Notes: a model not told the origin generated them from the sequence alone. DNA of 64,000 nucleotides from Escherichia coli (GCF_013122565.1 NZ_CP053258.1), one strand, 5' to 3'; numbered from the stretch's first letter, positions 1,810 to 45,914 are shown. Numbers and translations are program-made.

Positions 1810-2499
1810 TTACTCACTCTCTGCCGGTAATACTGGCATCCAGTCAATCGGCGTCTCGCCATGTTGTTCCAGCCACTGATTTGCCAGCACAAAATGGTTA
1901 CAGCCAAAGAATCCACGATGCGCAGAAAGCGGTGACGGATGCGGTGCTTTCAGTACGTGATGGCGTTGCTTATCTATAATCGCCCCTTTCTTTTGCGCAT
2001 GCGATCCCCACAACAAAAACACCACGCCTTCGCGATGCTGGTTAATCAGGCTGATCACTTTATCGGTGAAGGTTTCCCAGCCGAGGCTGGCGTGGGAATG
2101 CGCCTGACCTGCGCGTACCGTCAACACAGTATTGAGTAGCAGAACGCCCTGACGCGCCCAGCTTTCAAGATAACCATGATTAGGGCGGGTGAAGCCCGGA
2201 ATAGTATTTTCCAGCTCTTTATACATATTCAGCAGTGACGGAGGAGTGGCGATTCCGGGGCGAACGGAAAATGCCAGCCCATGCGCCTGTCCCGGTCCGT
2301 GATAAGGATCCTGGCCGAGAATCACCACTTTAACGTCACCCAACTCTGTAAAGCGGAACGCGTTAAAGACATCCTTTTGTGGCGGATAGATAGTGACGCC
2401 GGCCTGCCGCTCGCTGGCGACGGTCTGTAGGGTATTAAGAAAATAGGGTTGTTGCTTCTCTTCAGCCAGCACGTCATGCCAGGTTAATTCGTTTGCCAT
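1810..2499 (-). CDS. ung: Uracil-DNA glycosylase
   Basis: 229-aa [23 protein letters not shown]...; contains the GQDPYH active-site motif; length matches Ung. Confidence 0.97.
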
Positions 2500-2629
2500 C
2501 TCGCTCTCCCGCGAATCTTCAATCCGCCTAGCTTAACTGCTTCTTTCTACAGAACAAAATCATGCTCATTTTTTAGACTTAAACGAGTGCAAAAAAATGT
2601 AAATTGGTAAAATTTCACACCTGCATAAG

Positions 2630-2643
2630 TTGATGTAAAACAA
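2630..2643 (+). promoter_or_regulatory. FNR binding site (distal) in grcA promoter
   Basis: TTGATgtaaAACAA, 53 bp upstream of the proximal site; grcA (yfiD) is known to have FNR sites near -93.5 and -40.5. Confidence 0.6.
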
Positions 2644-2682
2644 TAAAATCCATTTGCGACCATACTTGATGTGTGGTTTTTA

Positions 2683-2696
2683 TTGATTTAAATCAA
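2683..2696 (+). promoter_or_regulatory. FNR binding site (proximal) in grcA promoter
   Basis: Perfect FNR consensus TTGAT-ttaa-ATCAA about 110 bp upstream of the grcA ATG. Confidence 0.7.
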
Positions 2697-2803
2697 AGAT
2701 TCAAGGGTGTTTGAGGAGTATATATACACTCAAGCAACAATGGTTTTACCAATTGGCCGCGACAGGCTGAACAAATCAAATAATTTTGCCGGGGAGGCAT
2801 CAC

Positions 2804-3187
2804 ATGATTACAGGTATCCAGATTACTAAAGCCGCTAACGACGATCTGCTGAACTCTTTCTGGCTGCTGGACAGCGAAAAAGGCGAAGCGCGTTGCATCG
2901 TTGCAAAAGCAGGTTATGCAGAAGATGAAGTGGTTGCAGTAAGCAAACTGGGTGACATTGAATACCGTGAAGTTCCAGTAGAAGTGAAACCAGAAGTTCG
3001 CGTTGAAGGTGGTCAACACCTGAACGTTAACGTTCTGCGTCGTGAAACTCTGGAAGATGCAGTTAAGCATCCGGAAAAATATCCGCAGCTGACCATCCGT
3101 GTATCCGGATATGCAGTTCGCTTTAACTCTCTGACTCCGGAACAGCAGCGCGACGTTATTGCTCGTACCTTTACTGAAAGCCTGTAA
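2804..3187 (+). CDS. grcA: Stress-induced alternate pyruvate formate-lyase subunit (glycyl-radical cofactor)
   Basis: ORF track 2786..3187; ATG at 2804 ([12 protein letters not shown]...) gives 127 aa; C-terminal glycyl-radical motif RVSGYAV. Confidence 0.95.
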
Positions 3188-3209
3188 GGCTTAAGTAGCA
3201 AGTTACTAA

Positions 3210-3240
3210 GCGGAAGAGGGCGACTTCTTCCGCTTTTTTT
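3210..3240. terminator. Bidirectional intrinsic terminator between grcA and eamB
   Basis: Stem gcggaaga/tcttccgc with 8-nt loop followed by a T7 run; A/T-rich on the other side. Confidence 0.7.
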
Positions 3241-3242
3241 CG

Positions 3243-3830
3243 TTAATAGAAAATGCGTACCGCGCAATAGACCAGCAACAGTGCAAGCACGATATTCAAC
3301 TGGCGACCATACTGGCGAAACAATCGCTGAAACAGATGCCCCGCCAGCGCCCAGCACACATTGCCAAACGTCCCAATCATCGCCAGCAAAACGCTGACGC
3401 CAACTACCCAGCTTAACGCCTGTGTTTGCGGCAGAACAAATGTCGACAGTGCCGTAACACCGTACAAAATGATTTTGACGTTCACAAACTGCAAAGCAAA
3501 GCTGGCCCAAAAACTGATTGGTTTTGTCTGAAGCCCGTCTTCCTTTGTTGGACTGGTAGCGATTTTCCACGCCAGCCAGACAATATATGCCGCTCCTGCC
3601 CAACTCAACAGATGCACTGCTGCCGGGTCGATAACAGCCAGTGAAAACGAAATGCCCGCACACAGCAACATGACGATTAAAAATCCCAGACTCATCCCTG
3701 CCAGCACGCGAGTACTCTGACGAAATCCGTGCGTTGTAGCTGAGCTAAGGGCGAGAATATTGTTCGGTCCTGGCGTCATGGCGGTAATCAGGGTGTAAGT
3801 CCAAAAAGCACTTAAAAGGGTCGGTGTCAC
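3243..3830 (-). CDS. eamB: Cysteine/O-acetylserine exporter (LysE/RhtB family)
   Basis: 195-aa hydrophobic ORF MTPTLLSAFWTYTLITAMTPGPNN...; matches EamB (YfiK). Confidence 0.93.
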   Translation of the reverse strand: MTPTLLSAFWTYTLITAMTPGPNNILALSSATTHGFRQSTRVLAGMSLGFLIVMLLCAGISFSLAVIDPAAVHLLSWAGAAYIVWLAWKIATSPTKEDGLQTKPISFWASFALQFVNVKIILYGVTALSTFVLPQTQALSWVVGVSVLLAMIGTFGNVCWALAGHLFQRLFRQYGRQLNIVLALLLVYCAVRIFY

Positions 3831-3932
3831 TTGTTATCTCCTCTGTTTTGGTAGACAGTACCCGACACGGAACATTTAAAAAAATGAATGTTTTTACATT
3901 CTAAATTCGATATTTTCGATAGGTTTGGGGTT

Positions 3933-4814
3933 ATGGATCTGCGCCGTTTTATTACGCTTAAAACCGTGGTGGAAGAGGGTTCCTTTTTGCGTGCTTCGCA
4001 AAAATTGTGCTGCACACAATCGACGGTGACTTTTCATATTCAGCAGCTTGAGCAGGAGTTCTCGGTACAGTTATTTGAGAAAATTGGCCGACGGATGTGC
4101 CTCACTCGCGAAGGTAAAAAGCTGCTGCCGCACATTTATGAACTCACCAGAGTGATGGATACCCTTCGTGAGGCTGCCAAAAAAGAGTCGGATCCGGACG
4201 GGGAGCTGCGCGTTGTTTCGGGCGAAACGTTGCTCTCTTACCGAATGCCGCAGGTGTTGCAGCGTTTTCGGCAACGCGCACCAAAAGTACGTTTATCGTT
4301 GCAGTCACTGAACTGTTACGTGATCCGTGATGCGCTACTGAATGATGAGGCCGATGTCGGAGTTTTTTATCGCGTAGGGAATGATGATGCTCTGAACCGA
4401 CGAGAGTTGGGTGAACAATCGCTGGTGCTGGTGGCTTCACCGCAAATTGCAGATGTCGATTTTACTGAGCCGGGAAGACATAACGCCTGTAGTTTTATAA
4501 TCAATGAACCGCAATGTGTCTTCCGGCAGATATTTGAGAGCACGCTGCGCCAGCGACGGATCACGGTGGAAAACACCATTGAGCTTATAAGTATCGAAAG
4601 CATCAAGCGTTGTGTCGCGGCGAATATCGGGGTCAGTTACTTACCGCGTTTTGCGGTGGTAAAAGAGTTGGAGTGCGGAGAATTAATTGAATTGCCTTTT
4701 GGCGAACAGTCGCAGACCATTACGGCAATGTGCGCACACCATGCTGGAAAAGCGGTTAGCCCGGCGATGCACACTTTTATTCAGTGTGTTGAAGAGAGTT
4801 TTGTGGCTGGATAA
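3933..4814 (+). CDS. yfiE: LysR-family transcriptional regulator
   Basis: ORF track 3888..4814; ATG at 3933 (MDLRRFITLKTVVEEGSF...) gives 293 aa; N-terminal HTH typical of LysR regulators; divergent from eamB. Confidence 0.9.
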   Translation: MDLRRFITLKTVVEEGSFLRASQKLCCTQSTVTFHIQQLEQEFSVQLFEKIGRRMCLTREGKKLLPHIYELTRVMDTLREAAKKESDPDGELRVVSGETLLSYRMPQVLQRFRQRAPKVRLSLQSLNCYVIRDALLNDEADVGVFYRVGNDDALNRRELGEQSLVLVASPQIADVDFTEPGRHNACSFIINEPQCVFRQIFESTLRQRRITVENTIELISIESIKRCVAANIGVSYLPRFAVVKELECGELIELPFGEQSQTITAMCAHHAGKAVSPAMHTFIQCVEESFVAG

Positions 4815-4872: not shown

Positions 4873-4970
4873 GCCGGATGCGGCGTGAACGCCTTATCCG
4901 GCCTACAAGATCGTGCAAATTCAATATATTGCATGAGCCACGTAGGCCTGATAAGCGTAGCGCATCAGGC
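4873..4970. repeat. BIME (two inverted REP elements)
   Basis: GCCGGATGCGGCGTGAACGCCTTATCCGGCCTAC and GTAGGCCTGATAAGCGTAGCGCATCAGGC, canonical REP palindromes between convergent yfiE and srmB. Confidence 0.9.
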
Positions 4971-8842: not shown

Positions 8843-9130
8843 TTAATTTACTAAACACGGTTTGGTCAGCATAGCATCATGTTGTGCGAATAAACACCTG
8901 CTATTTTAATATTTGTTACAGTGGCTAAACACGCTGACGCAGGGCGGCGAGAAAAAGAGAAGTTACTGGCTGGTGGAGGATTAGGTGGTGAAATAAAAAG
9001 GCCGTTGGGTTACTCTTCAGGCAGTTAAATGGGCATTTCTACACAGATAATGCGATGTTCAGATTCTGTAGACTTATAATGATAGATAATGATCCGTCTA
9101 CAGCATGACAAACAAAAACAGATGCGTTAC

Positions 9131-27610: not shown

Positions 27611-27641
27611 GCCCGGATGAGGCATTCACGCCGCATCCGGC
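27611..27641. repeat. REP element downstream of purL
   Basis: GCCCGGATGAGGCATTCACGCCGCATCCGGC, canonical REP palindrome. Confidence 0.85.
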
Positions 27642-35007: not shown

Positions 35008-35050
35008 GCGAAACGGTGATTTGCTGACAATGTGCTCGTTGTTCATGTTG

Positions 35051-35144
35051 GATGCGGCATGAACACCTTCTCAGGCCTACAAAATCTTGCAAATTCAATA
35101 TACTGCAATCTCCGTGTAGGCCTGATAAGCGCAGCGCATCAGGC
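35051..35144. repeat. BIME (two inverted REP elements) between glyA and yphH
   Basis: GATGCGGCATGAACACCTTCTCAGGCCTAC and GTAGGCCTGATAAGCGCAGCGCATCAGGC. Confidence 0.85.
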
Positions 35145-35204
35145 AATTTTTCGTTTATGATCATCAAGGCTTCCTTCGGGAAGCCTTTCTACGTTATCGC
35201 GCCA

Positions 35205-36398
35205 TCAAATCTGTCGTAACTGCGTCTCAACATACAAATAGCCAATTCCCAGCACCTGTTGTGCGCGGCTTAATTGCCCGAAGCCAATTTGCGTCGCTTT
35301 CACGCTCGGTCCTTCGTCGCGGTCGAACGGGTTAAATCCTGTCTGGCGAATAATGGTATTAAGCCAGTGCTCACCAAAGGCACAACTGCGACCGTACAAC
35401 CAAATCTGATTAATATTGAGGATGTTGAGGAAGTTATACAGACTCAAACCAATGGCATTGGCACTGCGGTCAACCCAGCTGGTGATCCACGGTTCTCCAC
35501 TCTGCCAGGCAGCGATTAACTGCGCGGTTGTCAGTTTTTCAGGATCAAGTTGAGTATTAACCGGTTGTGATTTTAGCCATACCCGCGCCTGTTTTTTTAA
35601 TGCACTTAACGAGGCGACGGTTTCCAGGCAGCCGTAACGTCCACAGTCGCAGACGACGCCATCCGTATTAACGATGGTGTGACCAATCTGTCCGCTACCA
35701 TACAAACTGCCGCGATAAATTTGCTCGTTAATCACGAACGACGAGCCAATGCCGTAATCAACGTTGATCACGCAGAAATCCCGTTCCTGCGAATTATTTT
35801 GCCATTTTTCCGCCAGCGCCAGCATCACGCAGTCATTATCGACCATCACCCGAATGCCCAGCTTCTCTTCCAGCAGATATTTCACCTCAACCGGCGTTGT
35901 CCACGGCGCTTGCGGCATGGTTTGCGACACTCCAGTCACTGGATCAACCTGACCGTGGATTGCCAGCGCCAGATTGATGGTGCGGTCCGGCCACAATTTA
36001 CGGTGGCGATGCCAGCATTTTTCGATTTCGGACAGCAGCGCCTGCGGCGTCGGTGCATCAATCTGTAAATACTCAAATTCACCTTTCGGACTTAAACAAG
36101 CATTAGCAACCTGACACTCAATACTGGTGGGCGTCACGTTCAGGCACAGCGTCCAGTCACCTTCCGGCGCAATCAGCCATGTACCGCTACTATGCCCGCG
36201 CGTCTGGCTTTCATCGTCGATATTCACCACCCGTTTTTCGCTTTCCAGTTCCTGCAAAATATTACTGACTGCCGGAATCGAAATTTGCGCCAGCCGGGCC
36301 AGCGTTGATTTATTGGCGCGCTTTTGCCGGTACAGCAGTTCCAGAATCACGCATTTGTTATGGTGGCGAATCTGTTGATTGTTAATGCAGGCTCTCAT
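35205..36398 (-). CDS. yphH: ROK-family (NagC/Mlc-like) transcriptional regulator
   Basis: ORF track 35205..36404 (399 aa); N-terminal HTH, ROK sugar-kinase-like fold with Cys-rich zinc motif CDCGRYGC. Start set at the second Met (36398) on remembered length; this is uncertain. Confidence 0.85.
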   Translation of the reverse strand: MRACINNQQIRHHNKCVILELLYRQKRANKSTLARLAQISIPAVSNILQELESEKRVVNIDDESQTRGHSSGTWLIAPEGDWTLCLNVTPTSIECQVANACLSPKGEFEYLQIDAPTPQALLSEIEKCWHRHRKLWPDRTINLALAIHGQVDPVTGVSQTMPQAPWTTPVEVKYLLEEKLGIRVMVDNDCVMLALAEKWQNNSQERDFCVINVDYGIGSSFVINEQIYRGSLYGSGQIGHTIVNTDGVVCDCGRYGCLETVASLSALKKQARVWLKSQPVNTQLDPEKLTTAQLIAAWQSGEPWITSWVDRSANAIGLSLYNFLNILNINQIWLYGRSCAFGEHWLNTIIRQTGFNPFDRDEGPSVKATQIGFGQLSRAQQVLGIGYLYVETQLRQI

Positions 36399-36515
36399 CT
36401 TCACTAAACCTTGTTTAGTTAATTGCGTGATTATTCCGCGAAAACATTGCCAGATTGTTCAATACACTGCCACAAATCTTTTAATTCAGTATGTCTTGTT
36501 AATATTGAGGGCACC

Positions 36516-39500
36516 ATGACTCCAGTAAAAGTGTGGCAAGAGCGCGTTGAGATCCCGACCTATGAAACCGGGCCGCAGGATATACATCCCATGTTCCTCG
36601 AAAATCGCGTTTATCAGGGATCGTCCGGCGCGGTTTATCCCTACGGCGTGACCGATACGCTGAGCGAGCAGAAAACCCTGAAATCCTGGCAGGCGGTGTG
36701 GCTGGAAAACGACTACATCAAAGTGATGATCCTGCCGGAATTGGGCGGTCGGGTGCATCGAGCATGGGATAAAGTGAAACAGCGCGATTTTGTCTATCAC
36801 AATGAAGTCATTAAACCTGCGCTGGTGGGGCTGCTGGGACCGTGGATCTCCGGCGGGATTGAGTTTAACTGGCCGCAACACCATCGCCCGACCACCTTTA
36901 TGCCCGTTGATTTCACCCTCGAAGCCCATGAAGACGGCGCACAGACGGTGTGGGTAGGCGAAACGGAGCCGATGCATGGTTTACAGGTGATGACAGGTTT
37001 CACCCTGCGCCCTGACCGGGCGGCGCTGGAAATCGCCAGCCGCGTCTATAACGGCAACGCCACGCCGCGTCATTTCTTGTGGTGGGCCAACCCGGCAGTG
37101 AAAGGGGGGGAAGGGCATCAGAGCGTCTTCCCGCCGGATGTAACGGCGGTGTTTGATCACGGCAAACGGGCCGTCTCCGCTTTCCCTATCGCCACCGGCA
37201 CTTACTACAAAGTGGACTACTCCGCTGGAGTGGACATTTCTCGCTATAAAAATGTGCCTGTTCCAACCTCATATATGGCCGAAAAATCGCAGTACGATTT
37301 TGTCGGCGCGTGGTGTCACGATGAAGATGGCGGTTTGCTGCACGTTGCCAACCACCATATTGCGCCAGGTAAAAAACAGTGGAGTTGGGGACACAGTGAA
37401 TTTGGCCAGGCGTGGGATAAGAGCCTAACTGATAATAACGGCCCGTATATCGAACTGATGACCGGTATTTTTGCCGATAACCAGCCCGATTTTACCTGGC
37501 TTGATGCTTACGAAGAGAAGCGTTTTGAGCAGTATTTCCTGCCTTATCATTCTTTGGGCATGGTGCAAAATGCCTCCCGCGATGCGGTGATAAAACTCCA
37601 GCGTAGTGAGCGGGGGATTGAGTGGGGGCTGTATGCCATCTCTCCGTTGAACGGATACCGCCTGGCGATCCGCGAAATCGGCAAATGCAACGCGTTACTT
37701 GATGATGCCGTGGCACTGATGCCTGCGACCGCCATCCAGGGCGTGTTGCACGGTATCAATCCTGAAAGGCTGACCATTGAGCTCTCTGATGCCGACGGCA
37801 ATATTGTACTGAGTTATCAGGAACATCAGCCGCAAGAGTTGCCGTTGCCGGACGTCGCCAAAGCGCCACTGGCAGCACAAGACATTACCAGTACAGATGA
37901 AGCCTGGTTTATCGGTCAGCATCTGGAGCAATATCATCACGCGAGCCGTTCACCGTTCGATTACTACCTGCGCGGCGTGGCGCTGGATCCGCTGGATTAC
38001 CGCTGTAACCTGGCGCTGGCGATGCTGGAGTATAACCGCGCAGATTTCCCGCAAGCGGTGGCGTATGCCACTCAGGCTCTGAAACGCGCACATGCGCTGA
38101 ACAAAAATCCGCAGTGCGGACAGGCGAGTTTGATTCGCGCCAGTGCTTACGAACGTCAGGGACAATATCAACAAGCCGAAGAGGATTTCTGGCGTGCGGT
38201 CTGGAGCGGCAACAGTAAAGCCGGAGGCTATTATGGTCTGGCACGACTGGCGGCGCGTAATGGTAACTTCGACGCGGGTCTGGATTTTTGCCAACAAAGT
38301 CTTCGCGCCTGCCCAACCAATCAGGAAGTGCTTTGCCTGCATAATCTGCTGCTGGTGTTAAGTGGTCGTCAGGACAACGCGCGTTTGCAGCGCGAGAAAC
38401 TGCTGCGCGATTATCCGCTGAACGCCACTCTGTGGTGGCTGAACTGGTTCGATGGTCGTAGCGAATCAGCTCTCGCGCAGTGGCGCGGTCTGTGTCAGGG
38501 ACGCGACGTTAACGCCCTGATGACCGCCGGGCAACTGATTAACTGGGGAATGCCCACCCTGGCGGCAGAGATGCTGAACGCACTGGACTGCCAGCGCACG
38601 CTGCCGCTTTACCTGCAAGCCAGCTTGCTGCCGAAAGCCGAACGTGGCGAACTGGTCGCAAAAGCCATTGATGTCTTCCCGCAGTTTGTCCGTTTCCCGA
38701 ATACGCTGGAAGAAGTGGCGGCGCTGGAGAGTATTGAAGAGTGCTGGTTTGCTCGCCATTTACTGGCCTGCTTCTACTACAACAAACGTAGCTACAACAA
38801 AGCCATTGCCTTATGGCAACGTTGCGAAGAGATGTCGCCGGAGTTTGCCGACGGCTGGCGCGGGTTAGCGATCCATGCGTGGAATAAGCAACACGATTAT
38901 GAGCTGGCCGCGCGTTATCTTGATAATGCTTATCAGCTTGCGCCGCAGGATGCACGTCTGCTTTTCGAACGGGATTTGCTTGATAAGTTAAGTGGAGCCA
39001 CACCGGAGAAACGACTGGCGCGTCTGGAAAATAATCTGGAAATTGCGCTGAAACGCGACGACATGACCGCAGAACTGCTCAATTTGTGGCATCTCACGGG
39101 GCAGGCAGACAAAGCGGCGGACATTCTCGCCACGCGCAAATTCCACCCGTGGGAAGGCGGGGAAGGGAAGGTCACCAGTCAGTTTATCCTCAACCAGTTA
39201 TTACGCGCCTGGCAGCATCTTGATGCCAGACAGCCGCAGCAGGCCAGCGAACTGCTTCATGCCGCGCTGCATTATCCGGAGAATTTAAGCGAAGGCCGTT
39301 TACCGGGGCAAACTGATAACGACATCTGGTTCTGGCAGGCGATATGCGCCAACGCGCAGGGCGATGAAACTGAAGCGACGCGTTGTTTACGTCTGGCGGC
39401 GACTGGCGATCGCACCATTAACATTCACAGTTATTACAACGATCAGCCGGTTGATTATCTCTTCTGGCAAGGAATGGCGCTGCGACTGCTGGGCGAACAA

Positions 39501-39797
39501 CAAATCGCACAGCAACTGTTTAGTGAAATGAAACAGTGGGCGCAAGAGATGGCGAAAACCAGTATCGAAGCGGATTTCTTTGCCGTCTCGCAACCTGACT
39601 TGTTGTCGCTGTATGGCGATTTACAACAGCAGCATAAAGAAAAATGCCTGATGGTGGCGATGCTGGCGTCCGCGGGACTCGGGGAGGTTGCGCAATATGA
39701 GTCTGCTCGCGCTGAATTGACGGCGATTAATCCGGCCTGGCCGAAAGCGGCATTATTCACCACTGTGATGCCTTTTATTTTTAACTACGTTCACTAA
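36516..39797 (+). CDS. yphG: Large uncharacterised protein with C-terminal TPR-like repeats
   Basis: ORF track 36423..39797; ATG at 36516 preceded by GAGGG RBS gives 1093 aa; no signal peptide evident; function unknown. Confidence 0.85.
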   Translation: MTPVKVWQERVEIPTYETGPQDIHPMFLENRVYQGSSGAVYPYGVTDTLSEQKTLKSWQAVWLENDYIKVMILPELGGRVHRAWDKVKQRDFVYHNEVIKPALVGLLGPWISGGIEFNWPQHHRPTTFMPVDFTLEAHEDGAQTVWVGETEPMHGLQVMTGFTLRPDRAALEIASRVYNGNATPRHFLWWANPAVKGGEGHQSVFPPDVTAVFDHGKRAVSAFPIATGTYYKVDYSAGVDISRYKNVPVPTSYMAEKSQYDFVGAWCHDEDGGLLHVANHHIAPGKKQWSWGHSEFGQAWDKSLTDNNGPYIELMTGIFADNQPDFTWLDAYEEKRFEQYFLPYHSLGMVQNASRDAVIKLQRSERGIEWGLYAISPLNGYRLAIREIGKCNALLDDAVALMPATAIQGVLHGINPERLTIELSDADGNIVLSYQEHQPQELPLPDVAKAPLAAQDITSTDEAWFIGQHLEQYHHASRSPFDYYLRGVALDPLDYRCNLALAMLEYNRADFPQAVAYATQALKRAHALNKNPQCGQASLIRASAYERQGQYQQAEEDFWRAVWSGNSKAGGYYGLARLAARNGNFDAGLDFCQQSLRACPTNQEVLCLHNLLLVLSGRQDNARLQREKLLRDYPLNATLWWLNWFDGRSESALAQWRGLCQGRDVNALMTAGQLINWGMPTLAAEMLNALDCQRTLPLYLQASLLPKAERGELVAKAIDVFPQFVRFPNTLEEVAALESIEECWFARHLLACFYYNKRSYNKAIALWQRCEEMSPEFADGWRGLAIHAWNKQHDYELAARYLDNAYQLAPQDARLLFERDLLDKLSGATPEKRLARLENNLEIALKRDDMTAELLNLWHLTGQADKAADILATRKFHPWEGGEGKVTSQFILNQLLRAWQHLDARQPQQASELLHAALHYPENLSEGRLPGQTDNDIWFWQAICANAQGDETEATRCLRLAATGDRTINIHSYYNDQPVDYLFWQGMALRLLGEQQIAQQLFSEMKQWAQEMAKTSIEADFFAVSQPDLLSLYGDLQQQHKEKCLMVAMLASAGLGEVAQYESARAELTAINPAWPKAALFTTVMPFIFNYVH

Positions 39798-39893
39798 ACC
39801 CTATTAACTGTAATATTTGAGCGGCACGCGCTGCCGCTCATCACAAAATAATTAGAATAAGCCGTTGTTAATAAAAACCCTACAGGAGGCTCT

Positions 39894-40877
39894 ATGCCTA
39901 AAAAAATGAGAACAACCCGTAATCTATTATTAATGGCTACGCTATTAGGTAGCGCTTTATTTGCCAGGGCTGCGGATAAAGAAATGACCATTGGCGCAAT
40001 ATACCTTGATACTCAGGGATATTACGCTGGAGTGCGTCAGGGCGTTCAGGATGCGGCAAAAGATTCTTCAGTACAGGTACAGTTAATTGAAACTAACGCC
40101 CAGGGTGATATTTCGAAAGAAAGTACCTTTGTTGATACCCTCGTGGCGCGTAATGTCGATGCTATTATTTTATCGGCAGTGTCTGAAAATGGCAGTAGCC
40201 GTACCGTTCGTCGCGCCAGTGAAGCGGGTATTCCGGTGATTTGCTACAACACCTGTATTAATCAAAAGGGTGTCGATAAATATGTCTCGGCATATCTGGT
40301 GGGTGACCCGCTGGAATTTGGTAAAAAACTGGGTAACGCTGCCGCCGATTATTTTATTGCCAACAAAATTGACCAGCCGAAAATTGCCGTCATCAATTGC
40401 GAAGCCTTTGAAGTTTGTGTGCAACGACGTAAAGGGTTTGAAGAAGTATTAAAAGCCCGCGTTCCCGGCGCGCAAATTGTCGCTAATCAGGAAGGGACTG
40501 TTTTAGATAAAGCGATTTCCGTTGGTGAAAAACTAATTATCTCTACGCCGGATCTCAACGCCATTATGGGAGAATCGGGCGGTGCGACACTCGGCGCGGT
40601 AAAAGCGGTACGTAATCAAAATCAGGCAGGAAAAATTGCCGTTTTCGGTTCGGATATGACAACCGAAATTGCTCAGGAGCTGGAAAACAATCAGGTGCTG
40701 AAAGCGGTAGTGGATATTTCCGGTAAGAAAATGGGCAATGCTGTTTTCGCGCAAACATTGAAGGTTATCAATAAACAAGCCGACGGTGAAAAAGTGATTC
40801 AGGTGCCAATCGATCTCTATACCAAAACGGAAGACGGTAAACAGTGGCTGGCAACGCACGTTGATGGTCTGCCCTAA
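39894..40877 (+). CDS. yphF: ABC transporter periplasmic sugar-binding protein (RbsB-like)
   Basis: 327-aa ORF with signal peptide MPKKMRTTRNLLLMATLLGSALFARA and periplasmic-binding-protein fold. Confidence 0.88.
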   Translation: MPKKMRTTRNLLLMATLLGSALFARAADKEMTIGAIYLDTQGYYAGVRQGVQDAAKDSSVQVQLIETNAQGDISKESTFVDTLVARNVDAIILSAVSENGSSRTVRRASEAGIPVICYNTCINQKGVDKYVSAYLVGDPLEFGKKLGNAAADYFIANKIDQPKIAVINCEAFEVCVQRRKGFEEVLKARVPGAQIVANQEGTVLDKAISVGEKLIISTPDLNAIMGESGGATLGAVKAVRNQNQAGKIAVFGSDMTTEIAQELENNQVLKAVVDISGKKMGNAVFAQTLKVINKQADGEKVIQVPIDLYTKTEDGKQWLATHVDGLP

Positions 40878-40899
40878 TCGCTGATTCGCAGAGGTCCCT

Positions 40900-42411
40900 A
40901 TGTTCACGGCAACAGAGGCAGTCCCGGTAGCAAAAGTGGTGGCAGGAAATAAGCGTTATCCCGGCGTCGTTGCGTTGGATAACGTTAACTTCACGCTCAA
41001 TAAAGGCGAGGTTCGTGCGCTGTTAGGCAAAAACGGCGCGGGCAAATCGACCCTCATTCGAATGCTTACCGGTAGCGAACGTCCGGATAGCGGTGATATC
41101 TGGATTGGCGAGACGCGACTGGAAGGCGACGAAGCTACGCTGACTCGCCGTGCCGCTGAACTGGGGGTTCGTGCGGTTTATCAGGAGTTAAGTCTGGTGG
41201 AAGGGCTGACGGTGGCGGAAAACCTCTGCCTCGGTCAGTGGCCCCGCCACAACGGCATGATTGATTACCTGCAAATGGCGCAGGATGCCCAACGTTGCTT
41301 ACAGGCGCTGGGCGTTGACGTTAGTCCTGAACAACTTGTTTCAACACTAAGCCCGGCGCATAAGCAGCTGGTGGAAATTGCGCGGGTGATGAAGGGCGAG
41401 CCGCGCGTGGTCATTCTTGATGAACCTACCAGTTCGCTTGCGAGTGCGGAAGTTGAACTGGTGATCAGCGCGGTGAAAAAGATGTCGGCACTGGGCGTGG
41501 CGGTGATTTATGTCAGCCACCGGATGGAAGAAATTCGCCGCATTGCCTCCTGTGCCACCGTTATGCGCGACGGGCAGGTGGCTGGCGATGTGATGCTCGA
41601 AAACACTTCCACGCATCATATTGTGTCGCTAATGCTAGGGCGCGATCACGTTGATATTGCGCCGGTTGCACCTCAGGAAATTGTGGATCAGGCCGTGCTG
41701 GAAGTCCGTGCGTTACGCCATAAGCCCAAGCTGGAGGATATCAGTTTTACGCTACGTCGTGGCGAAGTGCTCGGCATTGCTGGTCTGCTGGGGGCAGGGC
41801 GCAGTGAATTGCTAAAGGCGATAGTTGGGCTGGAGACATATGAACAGGGCGAAATTGTTATCAACGGCGAGAAAATCACTCGCCCCGATTACGGCGACAT
41901 GCTGAAACGCGGCATTGGCTATACGCCAGAAAACCGCAAAGAAGCGGGGATCATTCCCTGGTTGGGCGTTGACGAAAATACAGTGCTGACCAATCGGCAA
42001 AAAATCAGCGCCAACGGTGTGCTGCAATGGTCCACCATCCGCCGCCTGACCGAAGAGGTGATGCAGCGGATGACGGTCAAGGCCGCCAGTAGTGAAACGC
42101 CCATCGGTACGCTTTCTGGCGGCAATCAGCAAAAAGTGGTGATCGGTCGTTGGGTCTATGCCGCCAGCCAGATTTTGTTGCTCGACGAGCCAACGCGCGG
42201 CGTCGATATCGAAGCCAAACAGCAGATTTACCGTATTGTCCGTGAGCTGGCTGCCGAAGGAAAAAGCGTGGTGTTTATCTCCAGTGAAGTGGAGGAGTTG
42301 CCGCTGGTGTGTGACCGCATCCTGTTATTACAGCACGGCACGTTCTCGCAGGAGTTTCACGCTCCGGTCAATGTGGATGAGCTGATGTCCGCCATTCTGT
42401 CTGTGCACTGA
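40900..42411 (+). CDS. yphE: ABC transporter ATP-binding protein with duplicated ATPase domains (RbsA/MglA-like)
   Basis: 503-aa ORF with two Walker A motifs (GKNGAGKST, GLLGAGRSE) and two LSGGxQ signature motifs. Confidence 0.9.
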   Translation: MFTATEAVPVAKVVAGNKRYPGVVALDNVNFTLNKGEVRALLGKNGAGKSTLIRMLTGSERPDSGDIWIGETRLEGDEATLTRRAAELGVRAVYQELSLVEGLTVAENLCLGQWPRHNGMIDYLQMAQDAQRCLQALGVDVSPEQLVSTLSPAHKQLVEIARVMKGEPRVVILDEPTSSLASAEVELVISAVKKMSALGVAVIYVSHRMEEIRRIASCATVMRDGQVAGDVMLENTSTHHIVSLMLGRDHVDIAPVAPQEIVDQAVLEVRALRHKPKLEDISFTLRRGEVLGIAGLLGAGRSELLKAIVGLETYEQGEIVINGEKITRPDYGDMLKRGIGYTPENRKEAGIIPWLGVDENTVLTNRQKISANGVLQWSTIRRLTEEVMQRMTVKAASSETPIGTLSGGNQQKVVIGRWVYAASQILLLDEPTRGVDIEAKQQIYRIVRELAAEGKSVVFISSEVEELPLVCDRILLLQHGTFSQEFHAPVNVDELMSAILSVH

Positions 42412-42434
42412 TGAATTTTACCGAGGAACCTAAG

Positions 42435-43433
42435 ATGTCTGCTTCGTCATTACCATTGCCGCAGGGCAAGAGCGTCTCGCTCAAACTATTTGTCAGTCGC
42501 CATATTAATGAGATCGGTTTGCTGGTGGTGATTGCCATTCTTTATCTGGTCTTCTCCCTGAACGCGCCTGGCTTTATCTCATTGAATAACCAGATGAACG
42601 TGCTGCGCGATGCCGCCACCATTGGGATTGCCGCCTGGGCGATGACGCTGATTATTATCTCCGGTGAAATTGATGTCAGCGTTGGGCCGATGGTGGCTTT
42701 TGTCTCGGTGTGCCTGGCATTTTTGCTGCAATTTGAAGTTCCGCTGGCGGTGGCGTGTCTGCTGGTGTTGCTGTTAGGCGCGCTGATGGGAACGCTGGCC
42801 GGGGTGCTGCGCGGCGTGTTTAACGTACCAAGTTTCGTTGCCACACTGGGGCTGTGGAGCGCCCTGCGCGGAATGGGGCTGTTTATGACCAACGCACTGC
42901 CAGTGCCGATTGACGAAAACGAGGTGCTGGACTGGCTGGGCGGACAATTTCTCGGTGTGCCGGTATCCGCGCTGATCATGATGGTGCTGTTTGCGCTGTT
43001 TGTGTTCATTAGCCGAAAAACCGCCTTCGGGCGCTCGGTTTTTGCCGTTGGCGGTAATGCCACGGCGGCGCAGTTGTGCGGTATTAACGTTCGTCGGGTA
43101 CGCATTCTTATCTTTACCCTTTCGGGATTATTAGCGGCGGTGACCGGCATTTTGTTGGCGGCGCGCCTCGGTTCTGGTAACGCAGGTGCCGCAAACGGTC
43201 TGGAGTTTGACGTCATCGCCGCGGTCGTGGTCGGCGGTACGGCACTTTCCGGTGGTCGCGGCTCGTTGTTCGGTACGCTGCTTGGCGTACTGGTGATTAC
43301 GCTAATCGGTAACGGTCTGGTGCTGCTCGGGATTAACTCCTTTTTCCAGCAGGTGGTGCGCGGCGTCATCATCGTGGTGGCGGTGCTGGCGAATATCTTG
43401 CTGACCCAGCGTAGCAGTAAAGCGAAACGCTAA
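42435..43433 (+). CDS. yphD: ABC transporter permease (RbsC-like)
   Basis: ORF track 42411..43433; ATG at 42435 with GAGGAA RBS gives 332 aa; multi-pass hydrophobic protein. Confidence 0.88.
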   Translation: MSASSLPLPQGKSVSLKLFVSRHINEIGLLVVIAILYLVFSLNAPGFISLNNQMNVLRDAATIGIAAWAMTLIIISGEIDVSVGPMVAFVSVCLAFLLQFEVPLAVACLLVLLLGALMGTLAGVLRGVFNVPSFVATLGLWSALRGMGLFMTNALPVPIDENEVLDWLGGQFLGVPVSALIMMVLFALFVFISRKTAFGRSVFAVGGNATAAQLCGINVRRVRILIFTLSGLLAAVTGILLAARLGSGNAGAANGLEFDVIAAVVVGGTALSGGRGSLFGTLLGVLVITLIGNGLVLLGINSFFQQVVRGVIIVVAVLANILLTQRSSKAKR

Positions 43434-43498
43434 ACCTTAACGCCCCTGGCGCGGGTGCGGCAGGGATGAAAATTAATCGTATTGTTAATGAGGGATTT

Positions 43499-44560
43499 AT
43501 GAAAACGATGCTGGCAGCTTATTTACCAGGAAATTCGACCGTCGATCTGCGGGAAGTTGCGGTGCCGACGCCGGGGATTAACCAGGTACTGATCAAAATG
43601 AAATCCTCCGGGATTTGCGGAAGCGATGTCCACTATATCTACCATCAACACCGCGCCACGGCGGCGGCGCCCGATAAACCGTTATACCAGGGCTTTATCA
43701 ACGGTCATGAGCCGTGCGGGCAAATTGTGGCGATGGGGCAAGGCTGCCGCCATTTTAAAGAGGGCGACCGCGTGCTGGTGTATCACATTTCTGGCTGTGG
43801 TTTTTGCCCGAACTGCCGTCGCGGTTTTCCTATATCTTGTACTGGCGAAGGAAAAGCGGCTTACGGCTGGCAGCGTGACGGCGGTCATGCCGAATATCTG
43901 CTGGCGGAAGAAAAAGATCTGATCCTCCTGCCGGATGCGCTGAGCTACGAAGATGGTGCGTTTATCAGTTGCGGCGTTGGCACGGCCTATGAAGGGATTT
44001 TACGCGGCGAAGTTTCCGGCAGCGATAACGTGCTGGTGGTCGGTCTGGGGCCGGTCGGCATGATGGCGATGATGCTGGCGAAAGGTCGCGGTGCAAAACG
44101 GATCATCGGCGTTGATATGCTGCCGGAACGTCTGGCGATGGCAAAACAGTTAGGGGTGATGGATCACGGTTATTTAGCGACCACCGAAGGTCTGCCGCAG
44201 ATAATTGCTGAACTTACCCACGGTGGCGCGGATGTTGCGCTCGATTGTTCCGGTAATGCCGCAGGTCGCTTGCTGGCACTGCAATCCACTGCTGACTGGG
44301 GGCGGGTGGTTTACATTGGTGAAACCGGAAAAGTGGAATTCGAGGTCAGCGCCGATCTGATGCACCATCAACGGCGGATTATTGGCTCCTGGGTGACCAG
44401 TCTGTTCCATATGGAAAAATGCGCCCACGATTTGACTGACTGGAAGCTGTGGCCGCGTAACGCCATTACCCATCGCTTCTCGCTGGAACAGGCAGGTGAT
44501 GCCTATGCGCTGATGGCGAGCGGCAAATGCGGGAAAGTTGTGATTAACTTCCCGGATTAA
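43499..44560 (+). CDS. yphC: Zinc-dependent alcohol/polyol dehydrogenase (MDR family)
   Basis: ORF track 43466..44560; ATG at 43499 (MKTMLAAYLPGN...) gives 353 aa; GHEPCG zinc motif and GLGPVG NAD-binding motif. Confidence 0.88.
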   Translation: MKTMLAAYLPGNSTVDLREVAVPTPGINQVLIKMKSSGICGSDVHYIYHQHRATAAAPDKPLYQGFINGHEPCGQIVAMGQGCRHFKEGDRVLVYHISGCGFCPNCRRGFPISCTGEGKAAYGWQRDGGHAEYLLAEEKDLILLPDALSYEDGAFISCGVGTAYEGILRGEVSGSDNVLVVGLGPVGMMAMMLAKGRGAKRIIGVDMLPERLAMAKQLGVMDHGYLATTEGLPQIIAELTHGGADVALDCSGNAAGRLLALQSTADWGRVVYIGETGKVEFEVSADLMHHQRRIIGSWVTSLFHMEKCAHDLTDWKLWPRNAITHRFSLEQAGDAYALMASGKCGKVVINFPD

Positions 44561-44571
44561 GGAGTTAGCGG

Positions 44572-45444
44572 ATGACCATCTATACCTTATCCCACGGGTC
44601 GCTAAAGCTGGGCGTTTCTGACCAGGGCGGCGTAATCGAAGGCTTCTGGCGCGATACGACGCCGCTCTTACGTCCTGGTAAAAAAAACGGTGTGGCAACC
44701 GATGCCTCCTGTTTTCCGCTGGTGCCGTTTGCAAACCGGGTGAGCGGTAACCGTTTTGTCTGGCAGGGGCGTGAGTATCAACTGCAACCGAATGTTGAAT
44801 GGGATGCGCACTATCTGCACGGCGATGGCTGGCTGGTCGAGTGGCAATGTGTCTCGCACAGCGATGATAGTTTGTGTCTGGTGTATGAACATCGCAGCGG
44901 TGTCTATCACTATCGGGTAAGTCAGGCGTTTCATTTAACGGCGGATACGCTGACGGTGACGCTCTCTGTCACCAATCAAGGGGCAGAGACGCTGCCATTT
45001 GGTACCGGCTGGCATCCTTATTTTCCGTTGTCGCCGCAAACGCGGATTCAGGCACAGGCGAGCGGTTACTGGCTGGAGCGGGAGCAGTGGCTGGCGGGTG
45101 AGTTTTGCGAGCAGCTACCGCAAGAATTGGATTTTAACCAGCTCGCGCCGTTGCCGCGCCAGTGGGTGAACAATGGTTTTGCCGGATGGAATGGTCAGGC
45201 CCGCATCGAGCAGCCGCAGGAGGGTTATGCCATCATCATAGAAACGACGCCATCTGCACCGTGTTATTTCATCTTTGTTTCCGACCCGGCGTTTGATAAA
45301 GGATATGCGTTTGATTTCTTCTGTCTGGAGCCGATGAGCCATGCGCCGGATGACCATCATCGCCCGGAAGGGGGGGACCTCATTGCGCTTGCGCCGGGGG
45401 AATCAACAACCTCAGAGATGTCGTTGCGGGTAGAGTGGCTGTAA
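44572..45444 (+). CDS. yphB: Aldose 1-epimerase family protein (mutarotase-like)
   Basis: 290-aa ORF MTIYTLSHGSLKLGVSDQGGVIEGFW.... Confidence 0.85.
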   Translation: MTIYTLSHGSLKLGVSDQGGVIEGFWRDTTPLLRPGKKNGVATDASCFPLVPFANRVSGNRFVWQGREYQLQPNVEWDAHYLHGDGWLVEWQCVSHSDDSLCLVYEHRSGVYHYRVSQAFHLTADTLTVTLSVTNQGAETLPFGTGWHPYFPLSPQTRIQAQASGYWLEREQWLAGEFCEQLPQELDFNQLAPLPRQWVNNGFAGWNGQARIEQPQEGYAIIIETTPSAPCYFIFVSDPAFDKGYAFDFFCLEPMSHAPDDHHRPEGGDLIALAPGESTTSEMSLRVEWL

Positions 45445-45454
45445 TTTATAAAAT

Positions 45455-45484
45455 GCCGGATAAGGCGTTCACGCCGCATCCGGC
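45455..45484. repeat. REP element between yphB and yphA
   Basis: GCCGGATAAGGCGTTCACGCCGCATCCGGC canonical REP palindrome. Confidence 0.85.
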
Positions 45485-45491
45485 ATCTTTC

Positions 45492-45914
45492 CTAACGGCG
45501 ATCGAGAGAAATTGCCCCCGGCCCGGTAATTGCCAATAGCAAGAACGCGCCAGCGATACTGACATTCTTCCAGAAATTAATCATATTTGGCCCGACGGCA
45601 TCGCCGGTCATATCCCAGTAATGGTGACCAATCACCGCCGTACCCAGCGTGTAGAAAATAAACAGTACCGCCAGCGGACGGGTGAAAAAGCCAAGCACGA
45701 TTAATATCGCGGCGGGCACTTCCATAACTACCGCAATAATCGCTGCCAGCATCGGCATCGGTGCGCCCAGCGAGGCCATATATTGGACCGTACCGTCAAA
45801 GCCCATCATTTTGGGAAAACCAAAAATAATGAAAATTAGGACCACGGCGATACGGGCAATTAATAACAAAACGGGGCGGGCAGCACCAAAATCAAAATAA
45901 CGTAGTGAGTTCAT
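45492..45914 (-). CDS. yphA: DoxX-family inner membrane protein
   Basis: ORF track 45492..45959; ATG at 45914 ([28 protein letters not shown]...) gives 140 aa; four hydrophobic segments. Confidence 0.85.

Follow-up and report, generated by a model that had tools for sequence, protein, structure and literature searches.

The yph locus of Escherichia coli, a presumably repressor-controlled operon for sugar uptake and early processing with the multi-phylum protein YphG at its evolutionary core

Several sugar operons carry their own enzyme for the anomer or ring form of the sugar, among them rbsDACBK (the pyranase RbsD), fuc (FucU), gal (GalM) and the xyl operon of Lactococcus (XylM). In the oxidative catabolism of galactose and L-arabinose (De Ley-Doudoroff type), a mutarotase is followed in order by an aldose 1-dehydrogenase, a lactonase, an aldonate dehydratase, a kinase and an aldolase. 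Here the yph locus of Escherichia coli (GCF_013122565.1, NZ_CP053258.1) is compared with such systems. It occupies positions 35205–45914 of a 64,000-nucleotide stretch of DNA, the whole of which is referred to below as the window, and is flanked by glyA and hcaD. The locus belongs to the core genome and contains eight intact open reading frames (ORFs), yphH (minus strand), yphGFEDCB (plus strand) and yphA (minus strand), matching the RefSeq annotation; it has long been annotated, and its existence is in itself no news. We found no complete catabolic unit but an operon of a familiar class for sugar uptake and early processing, presumably controlled by a repressor. Comparison with other genomes indicates a mosaic structure, in which two modules for sugar handling, yphH-yphG and yphFEDCB, that are found apart elsewhere have come together. 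Its evolutionary core is YphG, a member of a highly conserved multi-phylum family with an unprecedented domain combination and no published function. Judged from the genes that accompany YphG and the yphFEDCB products in other genomes, the likeliest substrate is an aldose with the galactose configuration, of the type of D-galactose, L-arabinose or D-fucose, or a compound closely derived from one.

The genes are located at 35205–36398 (yphH, minus strand), 36516–39797 (yphG), 39894–40877 (yphF), 40900–42411 (yphE), 42435–43433 (yphD), 43466–44560 (yphC, for which a start at 43499 is likelier) and 44572–45444 (yphB), the last six on the plus strand, and at 45492–45914 (yphA, minus strand). These positions, which agree with the ORFs and with RefSeq, are those given in an earlier note on this DNA, which described a complete carbohydrate or polyol utilisation module with tight gene spacing and good ribosome-binding sites. 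The domain content bears out a carbohydrate-related unit of regulator, transporter and enzymes: ROK (YphH), DUF5107 plus tetratricopeptide repeats (TPR; YphG), Peripla_BP_4 (YphF), a double ABC_tran (YphE), BPD_transp_2 (YphD), zinc-dependent alcohol dehydrogenase (Zn-ADH; YphC), Aldose_epim (YphB) and DoxX (YphA). All of these Pfam assignments are generic, and none of the eight proteins scored above the cut-off of a curated NCBIfam equivalog. The ribosome-binding sites are real as well, with Shine-Dalgarno sequences before yphG (GAGGG), yphF (AGGAGG), yphE (AGAGG), yphD (GAGGA) and yphB (AAGGAG) and before the yphC start at 43499 (GAGGGA). The spacing is tight between yphC and yphB (11 bp) but not between yphG and yphF, which are separated by 96 bp containing a GC-rich hairpin. 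The word "complete" has to be given up, since neither a kinase nor an aldolase, isomerase, lactonase or dehydratase is encoded here; the operon covers uptake and the first cytoplasmic steps only. In addition, the parts list of the earlier note left out yphG, the largest gene.

Of 5426 complete E. coli genomes, 5369 contained the 11-kb yph stretch with a coverage of at least 80%, the best identity being 99.1%. Ratios of nonsynonymous to synonymous substitution rates (dN/dS) against the orthologs of E. albertii, Enterobacter and Klebsiella were 0.003–0.14 for all yph genes, indicating strong purifying selection, with yphC under the tightest constraint (0.003 versus E. albertii) and yphB under the loosest. 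The intact ORFs, the near-universal presence and the purifying selection together mark the locus as a working component of the core genome.

YphG, a protein of 1093 aa located in the cytoplasm, consists of a DUF5107 domain with an aldose-1-epimerase fold (residues 1–345), a small beta domain (residues 357–435) and a TPR solenoid (residues 460–1092). In an AlphaFold (AF2) model based on 78 sequences (predicted local distance difference test score, pLDDT, 95.4; predicted template modelling score, pTM, 0.93), these regions form, respectively, a beta supersandwich of the galactose-mutarotase type, a small beta domain and an all-helical solenoid. The N-terminal domain (N-domain) gives no match to Pfam Aldose_epim. 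The top fold matches of the solenoid are OGT, Ski3 and Ctr9; a hidden (alpha/alpha)6 glycosidase barrel in the helical part was considered and rejected, as every helical match was a TPR superhelix. Across Proteobacteria, Bacteroidota and Firmicutes, full-length YphG proteins are about 40% identical and their N-domains 53–58% identical. Residues E64, D85, K86, E116, H122, H123, H215, K287, E313 and D325 of the N-domain are invariant, and H122, H123, H215 and E313 come in the same order as in YphB, a correspondence of sequence order only. A conserved loop, FHPWEGGEG, sits at residues 876–883 in the TPR part. When the N-domain was modelled alone, its conserved loops at residues 25–50, 100–110, 215–240 and 320–330 dropped in confidence. 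Since these loops are confident only with the TPR part present, they probably pack on the solenoid, and we infer from the model a functional pocket situated where the N-domain and the TPR solenoid meet.

Homologs of YphG of about 1100 aa are abundant, forming at least 3904 clusters at 50% identity (E ≤0.001), and a scan of one genome per species confirmed at least 599 relatives among the first 600 pattern matches listed. A distant solved relative of the N-domain is PDB 5CD6 (BDI_1685 of Parabacteroides distasonis), a structural-genomics entry named "TPR-domain containing protein", which differs from YphG in being about half its length (575–580 aa) and in sharing 23% domain identity with it; a literature search found no function or publication for this entry. 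Nor does the searchable literature contain a functional study of any yph gene, DUF5107, PF17128 or 5CD6, and DUF5107 is not mentioned in it, while the names yphG or yphH turn up in only 16 papers. Some E. coli assemblies (P0002, P0028, P0037, and locus L012 at its positions 2286–4811) encode truncated YphG products of 955, 741, 643 and 841 aa, indicating that yphG is inactivated in a minority of strains. In Paenibacillus and Ruminiclostridium (L047, 13318–14292; L050, 7853–8851), a 324-aa protein with a weak DUF5107 match at its N-terminus adjoins the full-length YphG homolog and may be a short paralog of it.

The gene neighbourhoods of YphG were surveyed at 88 loci. The commonest neighbour was a sugar porter of the XylE type, belonging to the major facilitator superfamily (MFS), which was found at 50 loci and is 42–59% identical between phyla. 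In 49 of the 50 cases the porter is closer to XylE (38% identity) than to GalP or AraE (33%), and the YphG-linked porter is of the monosaccharide (XylE) type. The other neighbours differ with the phylum: 1) ROK genes (19 loci) and YphB-type epimerases (17 loci) were found in Proteobacteria only. 2) An AraC regulator (47 loci) and a beta-galactosidase of glycoside hydrolase (GH) subfamily GH2_20, the family of PDB 8U01 (33 loci), accompany YphG in Bacteroidota and Firmicutes. 3) Other neighbours in these two phyla include GH35 (9 loci), canonical GalM (6 loci), GH36 (4 loci) and GH97 (3 loci) as well as GH30, GDSL esterases and sulfatases. Outside Proteobacteria, YphG thus adjoins beta- and alpha-galactosidases that are either secreted or cytoplasmic. 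Among the neighbours at the 88 loci, there was no recurring kinase, isomerase or aldolase. In Enterocloster, YphG is followed by a short-chain dehydrogenase/reductase (SDR) and a sugar-acid dehydratase of the IlvD/EDD family.

The cellular locations of these proteins bear on what YphG may encounter. In the Bacteroidota loci, signal peptides are present on every glycosidase, esterase and sulfatase and on none of the porter-linked YphG homologs. With secreted glycosidases and a cytoplasmic YphG, the porter lies between them, and YphG sees what the porter imports. Periplasmic exo-glycosidases would thus free a sugar, the porter would import it and cytoplasmic YphG would act on it. The YphG, GH2 and GH35 proteins of Firmicutes are, without exception, cytoplasmic. 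Secreted YphG homologs form a minority and are encoded in polysaccharide-utilisation loci together with GH16 enzymes and sulfatases.

The two modules of the yph operon have different distributions. In other genomes, yphH-yphG is mostly accompanied by the XylE-type proton porter and a mutarotase, and an importer of the ATP-binding cassette (ABC) type with a Zn-dehydrogenase occurs together with YphG in a few enterobacterial lineages only (7–8 loci). In Enterobacter sp. BIGb0383, Enterobacteriaceae RIT691 and Budvicia (L014, L015 and L017), yphGFEDCB is followed by a XylE-like MFS porter gene. At this position, after yphB, E. coli has a 47-bp spacer (45445–45491) with a repetitive extragenic palindromic (REP) element, an arrangement which suggests that the porter gene was cleanly lost. 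Conversely, Acidisoma and Vibrio nigripulchritudo possess an orthologous cassette encoding the solute-binding protein, ATPase, permease, dehydrogenase and epimerase without YphG or ROK, the products being 52–53% (YphF), 61–66% (YphC) and 41–42% (YphB) identical to those of E. coli. This cassette is under a GntR regulator and beside genes for enolase-superfamily dehydratases, both of which exceed the cut-off of the NCBI galactonate dehydratase equivalog (339 and 577 versus 311 bits). These dehydratase links, together with the SDR and IlvD/EDD genes of Enterocloster and the coupling of yphC to yphB (11 bp apart in E. coli, overlapping in L092 and L093), favour the logic of an aldose, a mutarotase, a C1-dehydrogenase and an aldonate. 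No curated family and no searchable literature assigns a substrate to the locus, in keeping with the earlier note. However, its view that the substrate could not be deduced was too pessimistic, as the neighbourhoods of the 88 YphG loci and of these two cassettes indicate a galactose-configured sugar.

When metagenomes were scanned for relatives of YphC, most matches were copies from E. coli or homologs of 51–56% identity in L-fucose loci, with the FEDCB cassette present only on a short contig (L097), and a plasmid collection yielded no informative YphC relatives. In the metagenome loci L116–L175, an aldo-keto reductase and a YphC-like Zn-ADH are encoded together with FucU, an MFS transporter, fucosidases of families GH29 or GH95 and a LacI regulator, with no recurring dehydratase cluster within 5 kb of the dehydrogenase gene. 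This conserved environmental gene set appears to be a route of oxidoreductive type into the catabolism of L-fucose that is as yet undescribed.

YphF, YphE and YphD have the make-up of a CUT2-type sugar ABC importer, namely a binding protein of the Peripla_BP_4 family that bears a signal peptide, an ATPase of two fused domains and a permease of the BPD_transp_2 family. YphF is the periplasmic solute-binding protein (Peripla_BP_4, 115.9 bits), with a signal peptide ending in FARA/ADKE; it reached no NCBIfam equivalog, the best being allose binding protein (64 bits versus a cut-off of 335), and its nearest solved chain is 5HSG (E 2.7e-24). YphE is a fused double ATPase with two ABC_tran stretches and stays below the cut-offs of the AraG, XylG, AlsA, MglA and RbsA models (380–452 bits). 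YphD is the permease (BPD_transp_2, 123.6 bits), RbsC- and AraH-like yet below the cut-offs for both. Compared with transporters of known substrate (the Als, Mgl, Rbs, Ara, Xyl, Ytf and Lsr equivalogs), all three proteins are far below the cut-offs. YphF has been detected by proteomics, increasing 3–4.6-fold on levoglucosan versus fructose alongside MalE, XylF and MglA (PMC8753852). A specificity of YphF for levoglucosan was considered and set aside, the increase being judged to reflect relief of catabolite repression.

YphC is a zinc-dependent medium-chain dehydrogenase with matches to ADH_N (GroES-like), ADH_zinc_N and Glu_dehyd_C. Its translation contains both zinc sites, GHEPCG (the GHE of the catalytic ligands) and CGFCPNCRRGFPISC (the four-Cys structural lobe). 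It is below the equivalog cut-offs for Tdh (171 versus 380 bits), IolM (169 versus 450), GatD (107 versus 550) and IdnD (89 versus 469). Since YphC homologs are 348–354 aa long and cover 96–97% of the 364-aa ORF from residue 12, and since the ATG at 43499 is preceded by the GAGGGA sequence, translation probably begins there and not at the RefSeq-style 43466, giving a protein of 353 aa and a yphD-yphC gap of 65 bp. YphB belongs to the aldose 1-epimerase family with the supersandwich fold (Aldose_epim, 186.3 bits), and its structure has been solved by structural genomics (PDB 3NRE, match E 1.5e-204). Its residues His83 (LHGDGW), His148 (GWHPYF) and Glu253 (CLEPM) are invariant in six orthologs and, judged by their motifs, may correspond to the GalM catalytic residues.

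The regulator YphH is a ROK-family transcription factor (PF00480, 112.7 bits versus a cut-off of 22.9) with an N-terminal winged helix-turn-helix, seen as weak MarR/HTH_24 matches at residues 18–56, and with the zinc motif CxCGxxGCxE in the form CDCGRYGCLE. It is no ortholog of NagC (109.6 versus 650 bits) or Mlc (107 versus 530 bits) by the equivalog cut-offs. A published study counts YphH as a third ROK repressor in E. coli, still uncharacterised, which forms a small long-branched clade of its own and lacks the conserved GR linker motif (PMC4288165). The divergent ROK gene is retained in 19 of 20 proteobacterial YphG loci. When the 117-bp yphH-yphG spacer was aligned for six genera, from E. 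coli to Aeromonas, a perfect palindrome, ACTAAAC-N3-GTTTAGT, was found to be conserved in all of them. In E. coli it is located at 36403–36419, 4 nt upstream of the yphH start, and is the only exact match in the window (0.06 expected by chance); from its position and conservation, it is a candidate YphH operator. A one-mismatch copy, ACTAAACACGGTTTGGT, is present at 8850–8866 in the nadB-rseD-rpoE region and is probably a chance match. The block TTGCGTGAT at 36423–36431 has the same letters in the six aligned genera and could be a promoter or a second regulatory element; its resemblance to a CRP site is confined to a left half-site. A canonical site for CRP in the spacer was considered by eye and rejected, as the left half-site, CGTGA, fits and the right half is mismatched at 4 of 5 positions.

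In the model that we favour, a galactose-configured monosaccharide would be taken up, its form would be handled by YphG and YphB, it would be oxidized by YphC, and its catabolism would be completed by genes elsewhere. YphFED would act as the CUT2 importer of the sugar. YphG, with its divergent aldose-1-epimerase-fold domain clasped by the 630-residue TPR solenoid and a conserved pocket predicted at the interface, would act on the free imported monosaccharide at or beside the anomeric centre, either converting its ring form or anomer or opening a small internal or external glycosidic bond. YphB would supply the correct anomer by mutarotation, and YphC would then oxidize the sugar, most likely at C1, to the aldonolactone or aldonate. 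Further steps would fall to genes elsewhere, those of dgo in the case of D-galactonate. YphH would repress both divergent transcripts through the palindrome until the sugar appears, and catabolite control of the operon is likely. We hold this model as a whole tentatively, with a confidence nearly but not quite even; we are more confident of the architecture, and less so of the substrate and of the oxidation at C1. It is doubtful that YphG founds a new class of enzymes in which a mutarotase-fold domain closed by a TPR solenoid carries out an unrecognised first cytoplasmic step for galactose-type sugars. Candidate reactions for such a class would be furanose-pyranose or other ring conversion, opening of an anhydro-sugar or small glycoside, and epimerisation. 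If so, this step would be common to gut, soil and marine Bacteroidota, Firmicutes and Enterobacterales.

Several points weigh against the favoured model: i) The searchable literature holds no biochemical data on any Yph protein. ii) E. coli galK mutants fail to grow on galactose, which excludes a constitutive route from galactose to galactonate; either D-galactose is not the inducer or substrate, or the operon stays silent under laboratory conditions. iii) A length of 1093 aa seems excessive for simple mutarotation. iv) Profile alignment (hhalign) of DUF5107 with the YphB-type and GalM epimerases was not significant (E 0.4 and 0.12), leaving the equivalence of the catalytic residues of YphG and the epimerases unproven. 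v) The link to galactonate dehydratase is thin, with two loci only. vi) A consensus scan of 36399–36515 found no sigma-70 consensus promoter. vii) The nearest solved relatives of YphC are alcohol, xylitol, threonine and sorbitol dehydrogenases. viii) The next-closest 60 YphC homologs (51–56% identical) are found in L-fucose loci, which also encode FucU and fucosidases of families GH29 or GH95; 43 of these homologs have an aldo-keto reductase as a partner, a pairing with which the role of a polyol dehydrogenase fits as well as that of an aldose dehydrogenase. By either route, the chemistry concerns galacto-configured sugars, of the D-galactose/L-arabinose/D-fucose or the L-fucose/L-galactose series.

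Such a polyol route, which is near the view of the earlier note, appears unlikely to us. YphFED would import a hexitol or deoxy-hexitol, e.g. galactitol or fucitol, YphC would be a polyol 2-dehydrogenase of the sorbitol-dehydrogenase type forming a ketose or aldose, and YphG and YphB would bring the product into the ring form required by a kinase from outside the locus. The xylitol, sorbitol and L-iditol dehydrogenases among the best solved relatives of YphC are as this route would have them, and the aldo-keto reductase lying directly beside the YphC homolog at those 43 of 60 environmental loci, with FucU and fucosidases, makes up the classical pair of aldose reductase and polyol dehydrogenase. 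Moreover, the presence of both the ABC-ADH cassette and an MFS porter in Enterobacter sp. BIGb0383, Enterobacteriaceae RIT691 and Budvicia suggests that a single compound enters in two forms, as polyol and as sugar. However, the aldose mutarotase to which the cassette is translationally coupled, and the galactonate dehydratase linked to it in two taxa, would both be useless in a polyol-to-ketose route. The E. coli locus has no aldo-keto reductase, and E. coli already owns a phosphotransferase system (PTS) route for galactitol.

Quite unlikely, in our estimate, is that YphG is a new glycoside-cleaving enzyme, a hydrolase or anhydro-sugar opener acting on a small imported galactoside or anhydro-sugar, with YphB mutarotating the released aldose and YphC oxidizing the aldose or the aglycone. 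A mutarotase directly after YphG (YphB in Proteobacteria, GalM in several Bacteroidota) is typical of enzymes which release a single anomer, and the many invariant acidic and His residues of YphG fit acid-base catalysis. In Firmicutes, YphG is in an operon with cytoplasmic GH2 and GH35 and beside oligosaccharide ABC systems, and the second class of homologs, those with signal peptides, is found in polysaccharide-utilisation loci with GH16 enzymes and sulfatases. Very improbably, YphG could be a non-enzymatic sugar-sensing scaffold, the mutarotase-like domain binding the sugar and the TPR part a partner such as the regulator or transporter. TPR solenoids are usually modules for protein-protein contact, as the matches to OGT, Ski3 and Ctr9 recall, and a regulator, ROK or AraC, is always adjacent to YphG. 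Against this, the N-domain is conserved at 53–58% identity across phyla and densely occupied by His, Asp, Glu and Lys residues that never vary, the regulator family switches between ROK and AraC while YphG stays, and secreted homologs occur in polysaccharide-utilisation loci. Least probable of all is that the operon is a silent remnant with no current role in E. coli, as might be read from the absence of a reported phenotype or inducer in the searchable literature, the lack of a consensus promoter in the intergenic scan, the loss of the MFS gene of its relatives and the truncated YphG products of P0002, P0028 and P0037, since the locus is almost universal in the species, its ORFs are all intact and under purifying selection, and YphF is made as protein.

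The earlier note had the module bounded by REP elements or bacterial interspersed mosaic elements (BIMEs), and such elements are present at both ends. In the glyA/yphH interval, a BIME at 35048–35144 comprises a degenerate REP (about 35048–35080) and an exact REP (35116–35144) in inverse orientation, the latter being of the second type with no matches in shuffled sequence in the pattern search. Between the convergent yphB and yphA, an exact REP match, again with none in shuffles, is located at 45455–45484 on the minus strand. These elements have the features of REPs (consensus, imperfect palindrome, intergenic position and several copies per genome), and additional copies of the same two types are found in the window at 4873–4970 and 27612–27641. 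A perfect stem-loop, AAGGCTTCC-TTCG-GGAAGCCTT, is present at 35165–35190 between the BIME on the glyA side and the yphH stop codon and is a possible terminator for yphH or glyA. Within the operon, the GC-rich hairpin of the yphG-yphF spacer (39819–39839, plus strand; GAGCGGCA-CGCG-CTGCCGCTC) is without a T-tract and, as far as its sequence tells, may have a role in processing or stability or act as a weak attenuator. A separate terminator-like hairpin with a T-run is located at 39749–39772, within the last codons of yphG. Together, the two hairpins could partly uncouple the expression of yphG from that of yphFEDCB.

The product of yphA is a DoxX membrane protein (73.3 bits), and the gene had been counted as part of the module. 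In E. coli, yphA and the operon are transcribed towards each other; the gene lies on the opposite side of the cluster, between glyA and yphH, in Klebsiella, Lelliottia and others, and it is absent from the yph loci of Serratia and Aeromonas, being present in only 6–7 of 20 proteobacterial loci. As neither linkage nor co-orientation is conserved across relatives, yphA is a neighbour and no demonstrable member of the module.

YphG is among the largest E. coli K-12 proteins without an assigned function, and members of its family occur in major polysaccharide degraders of the gut and the environment, tied there to galactosidases and a dedicated porter. The neighbourhoods narrow the substrate of the yph operon to a short list of sugars in a genetically tractable organism. 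The yphFEDCB cassette may explain how enterobacterial aldonate pathways are fed, and if YphG does found a new class of enzymes acting on galactose-type sugars, the operon would supply aldonate catabolism by an oxidative route that has gone unrecognised.

Set beside the described systems, the yph locus differs from De Ley-Doudoroff catabolism in holding only the candidate dehydrogenase and mutarotase, with no lactonase, dehydratase, kinase or aldolase; to our knowledge, the known bacterial galactose 1-dehydrogenases are not of the Zn-dependent medium-chain type. It resembles that catabolism in the coupling of mutarotase and dehydrogenase, and the orthologous cassette adjoins a galactonate dehydratase in Acidisoma and Vibrio. 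In comparison with the ROK systems of NagC, Mlc and XylR, YphH forms its own clade without the GR linker, and its candidate operator is unlike the NagC and Mlc sites; YphH shares with them the ROK domain, the N-terminal winged helix-turn-helix, the zinc motif, the divergent orientation from its presumed target operon and a palindromic candidate operator. From the rbs, fuc, gal and xyl operons, the yph operon is set apart by the absence of a kinase or isomerase and by two mutarotase-fold proteins, one of them 1093 aa long with a TPR solenoid. Like these operons, however, it encodes a transporter, a regulator and a mutarotase-type enzyme together, an arrangement in which the enzyme readies the sugar for an anomer-specific step.

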